Shown piece by piece: positions 26,614 to 46,132 of a DNA stretch of 64,000 nt (position 1 is its first letter; every line of letters starts with the position of its first letter). The position numbers and the translations under genes were made by a program. Source of the DNA: an uncultured Verrucomicrobia subdivision 3 bacterium (GTDB lineage Bacteria; Verrucomicrobiota; Verrucomicrobiia; Limisphaerales; UBA11358); assembly GCA_903878805.1 (NCBI GenBank), contig CAIRJF010000028.1:81490-145489 (forward strand), read 5' to 3'. The notes beneath the pieces were generated by a model, which saw only the letters and a list, made by a program, of their open reading frames with translations, did not search any database and was not told where the DNA came from.

Positions 26614-28248
26614 ATGAAATCTAGCAGGAAAAATTTATCGGCCGAACTGTTTCGCGCGGCGTTTGCGGCAATAAATATTTTTCTGTTTTCCGTCATCATC
26701 GGCACTGTCTCGCAGCCGGTAATGGCGGTGGTTCCGGCCCGGCTGACCGGCCCGATTTACGCCGATTACGCCGCGCCGTTGCGCGAGGCCACGACTCGCG
26801 CGGACGGTTACGATCACGTGGATACGCCCGCGCTCATCCAAAAGTTGCAGGCGGGCAACATCAAGACCTACGCGTTTCTCGTGCACAGCGTGCCGTCGGA
26901 TTGGGATGATTTTCGCCTCGAATTTCTCCCGGCGGCACAGGCGGCAAATCTGAATGTCTGGTTGTATCTCACGCCGCCGAGTGAGACGAGTCCCGTGCCA
27001 TACAGCAGCAATTATGTCGCGTGGGCGACCGCTGCCGCGCAACTCGGGAGGACTTATCCGGTGCTGAAAGGCCTCGCGATGGATGACTTCAATGGCAACG
27101 AAAGTTTTTTCACGCCGACCTATGTCAGCAACATGGTGGCCGCCGCCTATGCCATCAACACGAACATGGTTTTCCTGCCGGTGAATTATGACTTCACGCA
27201 CAACGGCATCACATCATTTCTCACCCAGGATATTTGCCCAGCCTTTGCCAGTGCCTACGGCCCATTTTGCGGCGGCGTCATTTTTCCCTACCTGAACTGG
27301 ACGAATAAAAACGACTACAGCGATGAACTGTTTCAGATTTCGAACAACGCCGCCATCATGAACGGCCAAATCTGCCAGTTCGTGGTGAACCTTCCGTCAA
27401 ACACCCGCTCGCTTGTCGGAGATTTTTCTGCGTTGAGCCAGACCATTAGCAATGCGTCGGGGTTTCCGAATGTGCCATACCCGTTTCCCGTCCGCGTGTT
27501 CGATGACTACAACGGTGCCACGACCGGATACCACCAGTTGCAGCTCCTCGTGGATGGCGTGGCCGTGTGGAGTCGGGACGTCAGCGGCACAAATGGCGTG
27601 CAGGATTTCACTCTCGATCTCGGATCACAGCTCGCGGGCAAAACCTCGGCCACACTGACCGCGCGGGTCTATGATGCGAAAGCGGTTTCCAATTTTCATG
27701 TGCTCGCCGCGCTGAATTTGCCTGCTGGCACTTGGACAAAAGTTGAGAGCGGTAGTTTTGTCGGCACTGGCACTTATTATCCCGGCACACCCGGCCTGAA
27801 TGTTCCGCTGATCACCATGATCTACGATGGCGGCTACGGCAGCGGCACGAATTATTGGGGGCCGACTACCAACTATGTCCGGGACTCGAACATTCTCGCC
27901 CAAACTGCGGTGTTGAACCATGTCACTCGCGGCATCATCCAATACAAAATGGATAAGTCCGCCGGCAGCGGACAATTTCCGATTGTGCAAAAATTGTATG
28001 GGCAGTGGGCCTACTGCCCGCAGTTCAATTCCATCAAGCGGCAATCAGATGGCAGCGTTTCTGTCAGCGGCACCGGCGGCGGCCCGGATATCAGCTACTC
28101 ACTCCAATCGGCGGACACGATTACCGCGCCGCTTGCTTCGTGGTTCTTGGCGGCTACGAATCGTTTTGATGCAAGTGGAAATTTCACCAACGCCGGTTTT
28201 CCAACTTTGGGAAAGCCAAGCCAGTTTTACCGGATTTCCGTTCCTTAA
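26614..28248 (+). CDS. Uncharacterised secreted protein (domain paralogous to 10871-11791 plus C-terminal beta-rich region ending FYRISVP)
   Basis: Hydrophobic leader. Shared blocks with 10871-11791. C-terminal module resembles the C-terminus of 209-4477. Confidence 0.7.
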   Translation: MKSSRKNLSAELFRAAFAAINIFLFSVIIGTVSQPVMAVVPARLTGPIYADYAAPLREATTRADGYDHVDTPALIQKLQAGNIKTYAFLVHSVPSDWDDFRLEFLPAAQAANLNVWLYLTPPSETSPVPYSSNYVAWATAAAQLGRTYPVLKGLAMDDFNGNESFFTPTYVSNMVAAAYAINTNMVFLPVNYDFTHNGITSFLTQDICPAFASAYGPFCGGVIFPYLNWTNKNDYSDELFQISNNAAIMNGQICQFVVNLPSNTRSLVGDFSALSQTISNASGFPNVPYPFPVRVFDDYNGATTGYHQLQLLVDGVAVWSRDVSGTNGVQDFTLDLGSQLAGKTSATLTARVYDAKAVSNFHVLAALNLPAGTWTKVESGSFVGTGTYYPGTPGLNVPLITMIYDGGYGSGTNYWGPTTNYVRDSNILAQTAVLNHVTRGIIQYKMDKSAGSGQFPIVQKLYGQWAYCPQFNSIKRQSDGSVSVSGTGGGPDISYSLQSADTITAPLASWFLAATNRFDASGNFTNAGFPTLGKPSQFYRISVP

Positions 28249-30149: not shown

Positions 30150-30229
30150 GCAGGCAGTATCAGATTGCAGTATCAAAAAGTCAAATTGCGAAATGCAAAC
30201 ACGGTGTAAGTTGTTGATAATAAGCGGTT

Positions 30230-30319
<90 letters not shown>

Positions 30320-30343
30320 TGGTTTGTTTTATCTGCGAAAAAT

Positions 30344-30357
30344 TTTATGCCCGAAAC
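30344..30357 (+). repeat. Direct repeat copy 1 (TTTATGCCCGAAAC)
   Basis: Identical 14-mer at 31328-31341. Similarity continues imperfectly for ~25 more nt. Confidence 0.8.
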
Positions 30358-30517
30358 GCGCCGCATTATTCCCGAAGAAGAGTCTGTCACGTTTCGGACT
30401 TACGCGAGCATGGTGCGGCAGGCCACCTGCGCCGTGAAAAATCTCATCCTCGCGATGAACGGCGAAAAACCCATCGCGCAGGTGAATTCCGAAGTGCCGG
30501 TGAAGAAAGTGGTTTGA
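30347..30517 (+). CDS. Small ORF (56 aa) whose 5' end mimics the Ldh_2 gene start; possible gene fragment or partner of the HNH gene
   Basis: MPETRRIIPEEE... versus MPETYYIIPKEK... at 31331. GC looks host-like by eye (not counted). The stop lies 9 nt (30518-30526) before the HNH ATG. Confidence 0.35.
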   Translation: MPETRRIIPEEESVTFRTYASMVRQATCAVKNLILAMNGEKPIAQVNSEVPVKKVV

Positions 30518-30526
30518 GTAGAACCA

Positions 30527-31327
30527 ATGACTGTCATGCGTTGCATTTTTTGCAAACAAAATTCAGATTCATGTGTTTCTGTTGAACACATCGTTCCTGA
30601 ATCGCTTGGCAATACGGAACACATTTTGCCGAAAGGCTGGGTTTGTGATTCATGTAACAACTATCTTGCAAGCAAAGTTGAGCAGCCGTTTATGGAGTCA
30701 CTTTTTGGGCGTAATTCACGCTTTTGGATGCAAGTGCCAAATAAAAAAGGCCGCGTCCCATCTGTGATTGGTTTATATCCCAAATTAAGAACAAAAGTAG
30801 AATTGTTCCAAGCTGGTGCTGGCAAATTGCTAGTAGGTGCTACGAGCGTGGAAGACAGAACAAAATTGGATGATTCATTAGAGAAAAATCCGAATGGAAA
30901 TTTTTATGTGCCAGTGACTGATCTTCCAGATAGCGATTATGTGACTTCCCGTTTCATCGCAAAAATCGGTTTAGAAATTTTAGCTCACCGTTGCCTCATA
31001 AATCCTGATTGGAATAAAGATCTTGTTGAAATGCCTGAACTGGATGAGCTGAGAGCGTATGTTCGTCGAGGAAACCCCAATCTTATTTGGCCAATAAATA
31101 TCCGCCGAATTTACAAACAAGACTTTCTTTTTGCAGATGCAGAATGCAGTGGCTATGAGGTGCTACACGAATTTGATATTTTGGTTACTGAAAGAAATGA
31201 GTTTTACGCGGTTATAGCTATTTTTGGCGTTGAGTTTGTAATCAATTTAGGTGGGCCTGAACTTGACGGTTATCATAGTTGGTTCAAAAACAACAAAGGC
31301 CAAAGTCCGCTCTATAAAACAAATTAA
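30527..31327 (+). CDS. HNH endonuclease-domain protein with uncharacterised C-terminal domain (low GC)
   Basis: CIFCKQ...SVEHIVPESLGN...WVCDSCNN is a CxxC...EH..P...CxxCN HNH zinc-finger nuclease signature. ~40% GC on sample lines against ~60-65% in the flanks. Confidence 0.8.
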   Translation: MTVMRCIFCKQNSDSCVSVEHIVPESLGNTEHILPKGWVCDSCNNYLASKVEQPFMESLFGRNSRFWMQVPNKKGRVPSVIGLYPKLRTKVELFQAGAGKLLVGATSVEDRTKLDDSLEKNPNGNFYVPVTDLPDSDYVTSRFIAKIGLEILAHRCLINPDWNKDLVEMPELDELRAYVRRGNPNLIWPINIRRIYKQDFLFADAECSGYEVLHEFDILVTERNEFYAVIAIFGVEFVINLGGPELDGYHSWFKNNKGQSPLYKTN

Positions 31328-31341
31328 TTTATGCCCGAAAC
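31328..31341 (+). repeat. Direct repeat copy 2 (TTTATGCCCGAAAC)
   Basis: Identical to 30344-30357. It spans the start codon of the Ldh_2-family gene. Confidence 0.8.
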
Positions 31342-32428
31342 CTACTACATCATTCCCAAAGAAAAACACGATTCACTCGTCACGAAGGCTTATTTGAAAC
31401 GCGGTTACGATGCCGCCGAGGCCGCCGCCGGCGCGCGGTTCTGCGCCAGCGCTGCGTATTACGGCATCCGCACGCACAACGCCATCAAGGCGCTGCACCT
31501 CGACGAATTGTTCGGCAGCAAGGTCGGCCGCTGGACGCCCGGCGCCAAGATCGAGAAGCTGCCGTCGCGCTTCGCCGCCGCCGAAATCTGGAACGGCCAC
31601 AACAAGCTCGGTCAGGCCGTCGCCTACGAGGCGATGGACACCTGCATGAAGCTCGCCGACAAATTCGGCGTGGGCATGGTCAGCGTGGACAACGCGACGC
31701 ATTATCTCTGGGGCGGCGGTTACGTCATGGACGCCGCGCTCAAGGGCTATCTCGCCTACACGAACTGCACGTCGGCCACGTCCGAAGTCGTGCCGTTCGG
31801 CGGCAAGACGCCGACGATGGGCACGAACCCGCATTCGTGGGCGTTCCCGACGCAGGACGCGATCGGTTTTCCCATTGTGATTGATTGGGCGACCTCGACC
31901 ATCGCGATGGGCCGCGTGCAAGTGATGAAACGCGAGGGCAAACAACTCGCGCCCGGTTGCGCCGTGGATGCCGAGGGCAATCCAACGACCGATCCGAACA
32001 AAGCCGTCGCGTTGCTGCCGTTCGGCGCGCACAAAGGCTACGGACTTGGTTTGATTGACGAACTTTACGCGGGTTACATCGGCGGTTCGCTGCCGGAAAT
32101 CCGCGGCACATCGCGCGGCGGCGACGGCGAAAAGCGCGGCTCGACGTTTTATTTTCAAGTCATCCATCCCGACGCGATGCGCGGCAACGACTACGTCAAA
32201 GGCCGTTCGCAAATCCAGAACGTGAAGGCGATCATCGAAGACGTGCTGGGTCACGGCAACGAGAAGTGCATGTTGCCCGGCCAGCCAGAAGCGCGCTGGG
32301 GCGCGTTGTCGAAACAGCACAACGGTTTGCTTTTCACCAAAGCTGAGATTGAAGAACTGAATCACCTCGCGCACGAAGTCGGTGAAGCCGCGTGGAATTT
32401 GAGTGAATTCAAATCAGTGCAGGTTTGA
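31331..32428 (+). CDS. Ldh_2-family (malate/L-lactate/sulfolactate-type) NAD(P)-dependent dehydrogenase
   Basis: TNPHSWAFP and LPFGAHKGYGLGLIDELYAG are characteristic Ldh_2 motifs. Confidence 0.75.
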   Translation: MPETYYIIPKEKHDSLVTKAYLKRGYDAAEAAAGARFCASAAYYGIRTHNAIKALHLDELFGSKVGRWTPGAKIEKLPSRFAAAEIWNGHNKLGQAVAYEAMDTCMKLADKFGVGMVSVDNATHYLWGGGYVMDAALKGYLAYTNCTSATSEVVPFGGKTPTMGTNPHSWAFPTQDAIGFPIVIDWATSTIAMGRVQVMKREGKQLAPGCAVDAEGNPTTDPNKAVALLPFGAHKGYGLGLIDELYAGYIGGSLPEIRGTSRGGDGEKRGSTFYFQVIHPDAMRGNDYVKGRSQIQNVKAIIEDVLGHGNEKCMLPGQPEARWGALSKQHNGLLFTKAEIEELNHLAHEVGEAAWNLSEFKSVQV

Positions 32429-32461: not shown

Positions 32462-32497
32462 AAGCGGCCTTCGGAAACGAAGGCCGCTTTTATGTTT
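32462..32497 (+). terminator. Rho-independent terminator
   Basis: Perfect 12-bp stem AAGCGGCCTTCG-GAAA-CGAAGGCCGCTT followed by TTATGTTT. It lies between convergent genes. Confidence 0.7.
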
Positions 32498-44184: not shown

Positions 44185-44958
44185 TCAAATGCTCATCGCG
44201 TCGAAGCCGCCGTCCACCACGATTTCCGTGCCGGTAATGAAGCTGCCCGCGTCCGACGCCAGCAACAACGTCGCGCCCACGAGTTCATGCGCCTCGCCAA
44301 AACGTTTCATTGGCGTCTTGCCCATGATTTGCGCCACGCGCTCGGGATTGAGCACCTTGCGGTTTTGTTCCGCCGGAAAAAATCCGGGCACCAAAATGTT
44401 CACGCGCACGCCGCTCGTCGCCCACTCGCGCGCGAGATTTTTGGAAAGATTGTGAACCGCCGCCTTCGACGCCGAGTAAGTGAACACGCGCGACAACGGC
44501 GTGAGGCCGGAGGCCGAACCGAGATTAATGATGCTGCCTGATTTTTGTTCGACCAGATGCTTGCCAAAAACCTGGCACGCCAGCATGACGCCCTTCAAAT
44601 TCACCGTGATAATGCGGTCAAACTCATCTTCGGGAATGTCGAAAAACGGCGTCGGCGAATTGATGCCCGCGCCGTTCACCAAGATGTCCACGCGACCAAA
44701 TTTCTTCAAAACATCCGCGAGCAATTGCTGCAACGCGGTTTTGGAAGTCGCTTCGCACGGGAAAAATTCCGCCGTGCCACCGCCCTTGGTGATTTTGTCG
44801 AGGCGATCTTTGGCTTTCGCTGCGTCGCGTCCAACAAGCGCGACCATTGCGCCCGCGATGGCGATGCCTTCCGCCATCTCGCCACACAATACTCCCGTGC
44901 CGCCAATGACAACCGCCACTTTGCCTTTGAGTGAAAAAAGTTCCGCTGGTGTTTTCAT
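44185..44958 (-). CDS. SDR-family oxidoreductase (KduD/gluconate-5-dehydrogenase-like)
   Basis: [10 protein letters not shown] cofactor motif. YSASKAAV is the catalytic YxxxK. Confidence 0.8.
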
Positions 44959-45037: not shown

Positions 45038-46132
45038 TTACCGCACCACACGGGCGCCGCCGCCGCCGAAGGTTTTTTCCACTTCCTTGCGCGTGGCCAT
45101 GCTCGTGTCGCCGGGCGTGGTCGAGGCCAGCGCGCCGTGCGCTGCGCCGTATTCTACGGCTTTTTGCGCGTCGTTGAATTCGAGGAAACCGAATTGCAGG
45201 CCGCTTGCGAAACTGTCGCCACCGCCGACGCGATCGAGAATTTCAAGGCCGGGATACTGGCGGCTCTCGTGAAATTTTCCTTCGTGCCAGAGAATCGCGC
45301 TCCAGTCGTTCTTCGTCGCGGTGATGACGTGACGCAGCGTGGTTGCAGCGACTTTGAAATTCGGGAATTCTTTCACCGCAGTCTCAATCATCGCCTTGAA
45401 CGCATCCGTTTCGATGTGTTTGAGATCTTCCGCGCCTTTGACGGCGAAACCGAGCGACGCGGTGAAGTCTTCTTCGTTGCCGATCATTACGTCCACATAC
45501 TTAGCGATCTCGCGATTCACTTCCTGCGCCTTCTTGAGACCGCCAATCGTTTTCCAGAGCGACGGACGATAATTCAAATCGTAGCTCACAACGACGCCAT
45601 GCTTCTTCGCAGCCTTCACGGCTTCAATCGTGAGTTCAGCCGTTGTCGCGGAAAGCGCGGCGAAAATGCCACCGGTGTGCAGCCAGCGCGTGCCAACTTT
45701 TCCAAAAATATGATCCCAATCGAAATCGCCCGGCTTGAGTTGCGACGCCGCGGAATTGCCGCGATCCGGCACGCCGACCGCGCCGCGAATGCCGAAGCCA
45801 CGTTCGGTGAAATTCAAACCGTTGCGCACGCTGCGTCCGATGCCGTCGTCTTCGCGCCACTTGATGAAGTCCGTGTCCACGCCGCCCTGCATGATGAAGT
45901 CTTCGATGAGATGTCCGACCTCGTTGTCCACGAACGCGGTGGCCACGGCGGTTTTGTAGCCGAAACATTTGCGGAGACCGCGCGAGGTGTTGTATTCGCC
46001 GCCGCCCTCCCACGCGGTGAAATGCCGCGCGGTGCGGATGCGGCCTTCGCCAGGGTCAAGGCGGAGCATGACTTCGCCAAGCGAGATTTGGTCGTATTTG
46101 CAGGTGGATTGTTCGCGAAGCTTGATGGCCAT
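45038..46132 (-). CDS. kdgK: PfkB-family sugar kinase (2-dehydro-3-deoxygluconokinase-like)
   Basis: SLGEVMLRLDPGEGR at the N-terminus. DRVGGGDSFASG is the PfkB signature 2. Confidence 0.75.
   Translation of the reverse strand: MAIKLREQSTCKYDQISLGEVMLRLDPGEGRIRTARHFTAWEGGGEYNTSRGLRKCFGYKTAVATAFVDNEVGHLIEDFIMQGGVDTDFIKWREDDGIGRSVRNGLNFTERGFGIRGAVGVPDRGNSAASQLKPGDFDWDHIFGKVGTRWLHTGGIFAALSATTAELTIEAVKAAKKHGVVVSYDLNYRPSLWKTIGGLKKAQEVNREIAKYVDVMIGNEEDFTASLGFAVKGAEDLKHIETDAFKAMIETAVKEFPNFKVAATTLRHVITATKNDWSAILWHEGKFHESRQYPGLEILDRVGGGDSFASGLQFGFLEFNDAQKAVEYGAAHGALASTTPGDTSMATRKEVEKTFGGGGARVVR

Follow-up and report, generated by a model that had tools for sequence, protein, structure and literature searches.

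A 64,000-nt stretch of the genome of an uncultured Verrucomicrobia subdivision 3 bacterium (contig CAIRJF010000028.1, positions 81,490 to 145,489; here called the window) carries a perfect 14-nt direct repeat, TTTATGCCCGAAAC, once at the start of a 56-codon open reading frame (ORF) and again, beyond an HNH endonuclease-family gene, at the start of a gene for an Ldh_2-family dehydrogenase. The 56-aa ORF is a chimera, in which the Ldh_2 leader and codons 1 to 13 are followed by the last 43 codons of a second gene, referred to here as 2Hacid, which encodes a D-2-hydroxyacid dehydrogenase of the PGDH/glyoxylate-reductase type (325 aa, ending ...HVASRTYESVVRQATCAVKNLILAMNGEKPIAQVNPEVPVKKVV). The left copy of the repeat is probably part of this old recombination scar, hereafter the joint, with the cargo behind it exchanged later by homologous recombination in conserved flanks.

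Composition of the joint

From position 30386 on, the ORF reads as the 3′ end of a 2-hydroxyacid dehydrogenase gene (VASRTYESVV...). These 132 nt (30386 to 30517), three quarters of the ORF, are 80 to 95% identical to the 3′ end of the gene preceding Ldh_2 in relatives. The remainder derives from Ldh_2. Window positions 30327 to 30379 match the leader and Ldh_2 start of locus L001 (5981 to 6033) at 81%, and a BLASTP comparison of the ORF with Ldh_2 returned 11/24 identities over residues 1 to 24 (E = 2e-4). The left copy thereby retains ~20 to 24 nt of native Ldh_2 leader 5′ of the 14-mer; at the real Ldh_2 of the window, the leader of ~20 nt is gone and has been replaced by the 3′ end of the HNH gene. 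The two parent genes meet within a CACG tetranucleotide common to Ldh_2 codon 13/14 (...AAACACG|ATTCA) and 2Hacid codon −44/−43 (...CCGCACG|TCGCG), and less decayed joints in other genomes read KEKH|VASRTY across the junction. With donor-type homology running from 30386 through the 2Hacid tail and resuming at Ldh_2, these data show that the joint arose by illegitimate fusion, with 4 nt of microhomology at the junction. By tblastn, neither the remainder of 2Hacid nor its usual neighbors fabH and PilZ were found in the window, and the 56-aa ORF had no significant match in Pfam, PADLOC, or PDB. The tail was also considered as a structured DNA or RNA element and as a promoter, and both were rejected: it forms only a weak hairpin (z about −2), and no sigma-70-like site was found on its + strand. 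Features of the window are listed in Table 1.

Table 1. Coordinates of the joint, the current cargo, and nearby features in the window
Feature	Start	End	Strand	Basis
Tyrosine recombinase (integrase)	28695	30152	−	Pfam Phage_integrase 1.1e-20, Phage_int_SAM_1; Xer-like in NCBIfam
tRNA-Ser (anticodon CGA)	30230	30319	+	ARAGORN
Copy of native Ldh_2 leader, TTTTATCTGCGAAAAATTTT, directly 5′ of left ATG	30326	30346	+	Match to leader before Ldh_2 in L001 (TTTTATTTCCGAAAATTTTT), L004, L008, L011, L218
Left copy of perfect 14-mer TTTATGCCCGAAAC	30344	30357	+	Exact-match count
56-aa chimeric ORF (joint)	30347	30517	+	Ldh_2 codons 1 to 13 fused to 2Hacid codons −43 to stop
Decaying relic of Ldh_2 codons 1 to 13, MPETRRIIPEEES (native MPETYYIIPKEKH)	30347	30385	+	28/40 nt identical to canonical Ldh_2 start
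Relic 2Hacid 3′ end, last 43 codons and stop	30386	30517	+	94% nt identity to L001 5196-5327, end of intact 2-Hacid_dh gene
HNH_5 endonuclease-family gene, 266 aa, ~40% GC; current cargo	30527	31327	+	Pfam HNH_5 1.5e-11
Right copy of 14-mer TTTATGCCCGAAAC, the native Ldh_2 start region	31328	31341	+	Sequence kept at Ldh_2 start in most close relatives
Ldh_2-family dehydrogenase gene, 365 aa; right flank of hotspot	31331	32428	+	Pfam Ldh_2 8e-67
SDR (adh_short, 44185-44958) and PfkB kinase (45038-46132) genes	44185	46132	−	93-97% aa to relatives' genes directly 3′ of Ldh_2, same strand

The 14-mer occurs exactly twice in the window, and tolerating one mismatch adds no site. None of 100 dinucleotide-preserving shuffles contained two or more matches, which rules out a chance origin. 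Gapless likeness of the two copies extends over 36 nt at 81% identity (30344 to 30379 against 31328 to 31363), and the two repeat frames translate as MPETRRIIPEEE and MPETYYIIPKEK. The order integrase/56-aa ORF/HNH/Ldh_2 was recovered identically in at least five independent assemblies and is therefore not an assembly artifact. An earlier reading of the window from its letters alone (the original prediction) had located both copies of the 14-mer correctly, as well as the spacing of 27 nt between tRNA-Ser (end at 30319) and the left ATG (30347). It had also followed the similarity beyond the 14-mer; this holds for the 36 nt, but the weaker likeness that it drew further on, SVTFRTY against SLVTKAY, concerns residues that come from 2Hacid and does not reflect homology to Ldh_2. 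As to its proviso that the 56-aa ORF might turn out to be an unrelated conserved gene, three quarters of the ORF do come from another gene, 2Hacid, but the rest is derived from the Ldh_2 start.

The same joint with different cargo in other genomes

Searched at the protein level, the 56-aa ORF matched about a dozen ORFs of equal length and design (e.g., MPETYCIISKEKSVASRTY..., MIETCRIISKEKHVASRTY..., and MTETCRIIPQEKHDASRIY...) together with many shorter relics of the 2Hacid tail. Where the DNA context was retrieved (loci L081, L082, L218, and L219), relic, length, and junction were as in the window, and the surroundings were not. In L081, the joint lies between aldehyde-dehydrogenase fragments on the left and HicAB on the right, after which come two further partial tails, Ldh_2, and the canonical flank as far as yidC. 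In L082/L083, an AddA-like helicase gene is on the left, a 70-aa or 173-aa gene is the cargo, and Ldh_2-PfkB-SDR follows. L218 has Peptidase_C1 on the left and a NotI-type restriction-modification system before Ldh_2, while L219 has a ThuA fragment on the left, a VapB-like gene as cargo, and a noncanonical right flank. In L084 to L087, the joint is internally shortened to 36 aa and is found between a DUF748 gene and a cargo composed of an NHL-repeat protein gene and a 254-aa gene, followed by Ldh_2 and then a noncanonical flank.

These joints have derived changes in common, with codon 6 altered from Tyr to Cys or Arg in most and codon 13 from His to Ser in the window, L081, and L218, which indicates a single origin followed by divergence. 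The distribution shows that the joint is older than its present cargo. It has also decayed to different degrees: of the 40 nt that come from Ldh_2, 34 match the canonical start in L081 and L219, 28 in the window, and 23 in L082, and the longest perfect run against the genome's own Ldh_2 is 14 nt in the window, 14 in L081, 11 in L218, and 7 in L082. The N-terminal 13 to 17 residues of the joint vary almost freely, and shortened or start-less versions exist (P0072, P0007, P0011, and P0081). The perfect 14-mer is leftover identity in a decaying duplicate and not a recombination core. Canonical relatives contain no second copy of the Ldh_2 start, even when 11 mismatches in 43 nt are allowed.

A 61-nt block ~35 to 95 nt 5′ of the joint is common to L082 and L084 (7905 to 7966 in each), whose upstream genes differ (alignment score of 72 versus 16 for shuffles). 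The possibility of a decayed tRNA-Ser 5′ of these two joints was rejected, since alignments were no better than those of shuffles (p = 0.46 and 0.91) and Rfam finds no tRNA there.

A hotspot between 2Hacid and Ldh_2

Searches found 587 relatives of Ldh_2, and we compared 80 loci around close homologues from Verrucomicrobia metagenome-assembled genomes (MAGs). An intact 2Hacid is the upstream neighbor of Ldh_2 in ~60 related Verrucomicrobia loci, within the canonical order plsX-fabH-PilZ-2Hacid-Ldh_2-PfkB-SDR, and the 2Hacid/Ldh_2 pair is kept across the group, distant Opitutaceae included. The spacer between the two genes is 6 to 30 nt, an empty site, in at least 10 loci; ~100 to 120 nt with hairpin repeats resembling repetitive extragenic palindromic (REP) sequences in several others; and 300 to 3563 nt in the closest clade, where the cargo is diverse and often low in GC. 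Cargo takes up the whole spacer, from just past the 2Hacid stop codon to a few nucleotides before the Ldh_2 ATG, and includes VapBC, HicAB, HigBA, a restriction-modification system, a methyltransferase, HNH, REP-associated transposase-like genes, and many unknown small genes. Mobile-element machinery at occupied sites is limited to occasional REP-associated transposase-like genes. With constant flanks, variable content, empty sites, and for the most part no integrase, the locus is a core-gene-flanked hotspot of horizontal gene transfer. It is well established that hotspots without mobile elements can turn over through recombination in the core genes on either side (Oliveira, Touchon & Rocha 2017, PMC5635113).

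The slot gathers defense and addiction modules. Examples are a NotI-type restriction enzyme with its methyltransferase (L218, 2451 to 4303) and HicAB (L081, 4996 to 5429), and HicAB, HigBA, and a recurrent VapBC pair are distributed over L081, L004, L007, L015, L017, L049, L056, and L059. In L034, L040, L041, L046, L047, and L062, the spacer of 100 to 122 nt consists of a hairpin-forming repeat of GAATGTTGAA/TTCAACATTC units; it looks like a REP-like element or a miniature inverted-repeat transposable element as minimal occupant of the hotspot. Coding sequence of the form ...NPGLNDCNPF(G/R)IA... was observed beside tail relics and REP-associated transposase-like genes (L220, 6930 to 7000; P0023; L039, 4214 to 4396), which suggests activity of REP sequences and their associated transposases at the locus.

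The HNH gene is the cargo currently held by the window. It belongs to a large family of stand-alone proteins of about 265 aa, for which 913 homologues were found, the nearest nonidentical ones on usable contigs being 72% and 66% identical in amino acids. These homologues occupy the same slot in L092 to L097 (plsX-fabH-PilZ-2Hacid-HNH-Ldh_2, with 2Hacid intact), and the left junction of L092 is that of the window (TGA xTAGAACCx ATG...), but none of these HNH-bearing loci has a duplicated Ldh_2 start. The repeat is therefore not a footprint of HNH arrival, and the HNH gene did not make it. The HNH gene is only 71% identical in nucleotides to that of L092, while the flanks are ~96% identical. No homologue was found elsewhere in the 80 genome loci; one with 61% amino acid identity lies in an unrelated context (L223). 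As a candidate defense protein, HNH had no PADLOC match and only a weak HNH-domain match to IscB in NCBIfam.

Other scars and homogeneity of the flanks

The joint is not the only scar at this locus. Partial 2Hacid tails of 33 to 133 nt, always reaching the stop codon, lie 3′ of cargo in L004, L007, L014, L015, L032, L049, L080, and L081, with three tail copies in the L081 array. L220 to L222 have an independent 153-nt tail relic beside yet another left flank, and in P0083 an independent fusion joins 33 aa of Ldh_2 to 22 aa of 2Hacid at another position. One-sided imprecise joins thus recur at the locus.

The segments that border the cargo are unusually alike between genomes. Over its last 87 nt, the tail of the window is 98 to 99% (98.8%) identical to the relics in L081, L082, and L084, and in L082 it is near-identical though the rest of the joint is decayed and Ldh_2 is 85.6% identical. 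Ldh_2 itself is a mosaic, its first 600 nt being 96 to 99% identical to relatives whose 3′ half is at 70 to 85%; in L020, L036, L082, and L096, the last 500 nt are 68 to 89% identical versus 96 to 99% for the first 600 nt. Strong DNA-level constraint on the tail was not evident in intact 2Hacid genes, where third-codon-position diversity of the tail is 0.2 to 0.4, roughly normal and modestly below the gene average. The simplest reading of this homogeneity would be that homologous exchange took place repeatedly, its crossovers falling within the tail and proximal Ldh_2.

tRNA-Ser, integrase, and the surrounding rearrangement

The tRNA-Ser and integrase genes to the left of the joint had suggested a hotspot between tRNA-Ser and Ldh_2. 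A nonexhaustive scan of metagenomes, which used the 3′ 34 nt of tRNA-Ser as query and listed 80 loci, does not bear this out. No tRNA is found upstream of Ldh_2 in any of the 80 Ldh_2 loci, and neither Ldh_2 nor a 2Hacid tail nor HNH lies downstream of tRNA-Ser in any of the 80 tRNA-Ser loci listed. At least ~25 of the latter have homologues of the integrase (45 to 89% amino acid identity) in the same divergent position 5′ of tRNA-Ser. Conversely, homologues of the integrase were found at none of 87 hotspot loci and in none of L092 to L097 and L218 to L222, i.e., at none of >90 hotspot copies overall. Integrase and tRNA-Ser therefore form a separate module that recurs as such and adjoins the joint in this species only. 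The existence of a hotspot beside Ldh_2 was correctly anticipated, inasmuch as relatives have both empty sites (the 6- to 30-nt spacers) and alternative cargo, but these lie between 2Hacid and Ldh_2 and none takes the form tRNA-Ser/Ldh_2; the left flank is 2Hacid, not tRNA-Ser.

The integrase/tRNA-Ser loci comprise L100, L106, L111, L114 to L117, L125, L127, L134, L139, L143, L144, L147, L157, L159, L161, L162, L167, L168, L171, L172, L176, and L177. DNA 3′ of their tRNA-Ser is highly variable and often contains short direct repeats (e.g., GTGCCAGTGAAAGTGCCAGTGA and GGGGACAGATTGGGGACA) resembling arm-type sites, and an integrase placed 5′ of the tRNA is unusual among tRNA-targeting elements. 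The integrase ORF, called mechanically, extends to 30320 and over the tRNA; its genuine start is probably near 30152. An island at tRNA-Ser with att repeats was rejected, as the 64-kb window has no second copy of any part of the tRNA-Ser, 3′ end included, and no att-like direct repeats are present around 28.2 to 32.7 kb.

The left-hand 28 kb was likewise considered as a mobile island and rejected, since it consists of a chromosomal operon for glycan degradation whose synteny with relatives extends to 28248 and no further. To the right, the PfkB and SDR genes that directly follow Ldh_2 in relatives are inverted and 11.7 kb from it, consistent with an inversion of ~13.7 kb beginning right after the Ldh_2 stop codon. 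With left synteny ending at 28248 and PfkB/SDR displaced, the joint-HNH-Ldh_2 block sits at a local rearrangement breakpoint. The operon (209 to 28248) has ~19 same-strand genes, among them those for a sodium:solute symporter, NAGidase, an aminotransferase, a ceramidase-like protein, and GH20, at 77 to 96% amino acid identity to L225 to L227; a GFO_IDH_MocA oxidoreductase gene precedes GH20 in the window and follows a 544-aa gene in relatives. Between the convergent Ldh_2 and nucleotidyl-transferase genes, a perfect 12-bp hairpin (32462 to 32489; AAGCGGCCTTCG AAAC CGAAGGCCGCTT) is probably a bidirectional terminator.

Proposed history and alternatives

We propose that, in one ancestor, illegitimate recombination at CACG joined Ldh_2 codon 13 and its leader to 2Hacid codon −43, which would have left the 56-codon chimeric ORF, then a cargo slot, then a full Ldh_2. 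As to the route, we tentatively favor homology-facilitated illegitimate recombination, in which a donor fragment consisting of 2Hacid tail, cargo, and Ldh_2 would have been anchored in Ldh_2 by homology while its free end was fused illegitimately within the Ldh_2 start of the recipient. By this route, a genome without the left arm could not swap cargo cleanly, and two-armed genomes could, so that the joint would be seen only where the 2Hacid body is missing. Cargo would later have been exchanged by homologous recombination, with the 2Hacid tail and 5′ Ldh_2 as arms. Arms used in this way would stay nearly identical between genomes, and the Ldh_2-derived 39 nt, lying outside the arms, would decay, with the 14-mer as a stretch not yet mutated. 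HNH is the present cargo in this species, and tRNA-Ser and integrase would have become the left neighbors of the joint through a separate rearrangement. The second option of the original prediction, recombination with a similarly arranged donor locus, comes close to this history.

Several points weigh against this account. An arrangement of intact 2Hacid, cargo, joint, cargo, and Ldh_2 was found together in no genome. In the window and in L081, L082, L084, L218, and L219, the 2Hacid body is missing within 2 to 30 kb and the left flank differs each time; neither the favored route nor the duplication considered below explains these differing flanks, and further rearrangements have to be postulated in a region prone to them. 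The favored route also needs uptake of DNA by the host, and the genomes are all uncultured MAGs. Homogeneity of the flanks could instead reflect selection at the DNA level. Finally, the 56-codon frame is open even in the heavily decayed L082, for which a bias of the ORF-based search or weak selection are possible reasons.

The joint might alternatively have come from a tandem duplication of ~200 bp plus cargo, or from a circularized segment of 2Hacid tail, cargo, and Ldh_2 start that reinserted by a single crossover, with the upstream 2Hacid later removed. Either event would be expected to produce the novel joint observed, with the start of the downstream gene joined head-to-tail to the end of the upstream gene, and multitail arrays such as the three copies in L081 do exist. 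We nevertheless consider this origin rather unlikely, because the intact 2Hacid that it predicts 5′ of the joint is present in 0/80 canonical and 0/6 joint-bearing loci; no full 2Hacid was found left of the joint in 30 kb of the window or in 2 to 8 kb of the other five loci just named, although it could lie further off.

Two further explanations would give one of the sequences a function, and we think both improbable. By the first, the last ~90 to 150 nt of 2Hacid would be where an enzyme of the host or of the cargo preferentially breaks or recombines the DNA. Such an active site would account for the clustering of independent breakpoints (relic tails of 33 to 153 nt and several different fusion joints), for the near-identity of the tail in relics with decayed neighbors, and for the occurrence of tail-cargo-Ldh_2 units beside at least six different left flanks. 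If this were true, it would represent a recombinase-poor, cassette-array-like system in Verrucomicrobia. By the second, the 56-aa ORF would be a functional small gene under selection, e.g., a leader or coupling ORF for expression of cargo and Ldh_2 once 2Hacid had gone, and the repeat would be maintained with it. Start codon, leader, and full 56-codon frame are indeed kept in many genomes, the diverged L082 included. Still, its N-terminal residues are nearly free to vary, nonconservative changes (E to A, V to M, and P to S) affect residues of the window copy that come from 2Hacid, the shortened and start-less versions noted above occur, and no promoter-like site was found; moreover, a protein-database search returns only intact ORFs, an ascertainment bias.

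It is very unlikely that HNH is a free-standing homing endonuclease that cut an allele lacking HNH close to where 2Hacid meets Ldh_2 and was copied into that allele during repair, with co-conversion homogenizing the flanks and occasional duplications as a by-product. In favor of homing, HNH is packed tightly between the two conserved genes in three lineages, and its flanks are far more alike than the gene itself. However, cargo that encodes no nuclease is accompanied by equal homogeneity of the flanks and by the same joint, the 61% homologue lies outside this context, HNH has neither a PADLOC match nor another functional assignment, and homing would need both alleles in one cell.

We find it hardly credible that the 56-aa ORF and HNH form a cassette that integrated site-specifically at a 14-nt core in the Ldh_2 5′ end, bringing a diverged surrogate end and perhaps moved by the adjacent integrase: the perfect repeat does enclose a low-GC segment and integrase and tRNA do lie immediately upstream, but this segment does not form a single unit (its 132 nt derived from 2Hacid are what remains of a normal chromosomal neighbor), HNH homologues hold the slot without the repeat, the same joint carries HicAB, NotI-type restriction-modification, or unknown genes elsewhere, the integrase and the hotspot do not accompany each other in other genomes, a tRNA-Ser/Ldh_2 empty site is found in 0 of the 160 loci listed (80 Ldh_2 and 80 tRNA-Ser), and there is no att-like repeat of the tRNA 3′ end. 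The original prediction, for which site-specific integration was the first option and the two repeats the exact edges of an acquired segment, is not supported on either count.

Comparison with known systems and significance

The locus resembles the hotspots described by Oliveira, Touchon & Rocha (2017, PMC5635113) in its fixed conserved flanks, empty sites, many small cargoes, usual lack of an integrase or mobile gene, and unusually similar flank segments. It differs from core-flanked hotspots in keeping a fossil joint and partial duplicates of the upstream gene end, which a clean double crossover does not produce, and in that the joint-bearing genomes have lost the left core flank.

Homology-facilitated illegitimate recombination has been described for natural transformation in Acinetobacter, Pseudomonas stutzeri, and Streptococcus pneumoniae. 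It has in common with our proposal that one end is anchored by homology and the other joins at 3 to 10 nt of GC-rich microhomology (here CACG), with duplications or deletions at the illegitimate end; unlike in those cases, the event proposed here would be read from a scar old enough to have diverged.

Integrative elements that target gene ends (tRNA, tmRNA, or gene-3′-end islands with tyrosine integrases) likewise leave partial gene-end duplicates around the insert, and an integrase and a tRNA are nearby here. In contrast, the duplicates at this locus are 33 to 153 nt, the cargo is 0.3 to 3.5 kb without recombinases, and the integrase is absent from the hotspot in all other genomes examined. 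Integron cassette arrays also bear some resemblance, as a divergent tyrosine recombinase stands beside small promoter-less genes and, in some relatives, the 2Hacid tail is repeated between genes. Yet the recombinase is not IntI and is absent from all other arrays, and what is repeated is not attC but part of a gene, forming only a weak hairpin (z about −2). The best NCBIfam matches of the integrase are Xer-type, and integron-integrase models cover only ~60 C-terminal residues, far below cutoff. With no associated recombinase, no constant unit or ends, and no empty site of the predicted form, the locus is not one of integrase-mediated insertion, nor is it an integron.

The locus is of an ordinary kind, well documented here, and reveals no new mechanism. 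Direct repeats close to a tRNA and an integrase can be deceptive, and in this case comparative data shift the explanation from site-specific integration to illegitimate and homologous recombination. Coming from uncultured Verrucomicrobia of soil and peat, the locus illustrates cleanly and at sequence level how a core-gene-flanked accessory hotspot works and which scars it leaves: different species have inherited a datable fusion joint, followed by cargo that varies (toxin-antitoxin, restriction-modification, and HNH). The hotspot is also a useful place to seek new small defense or selfish genes in this phylum.

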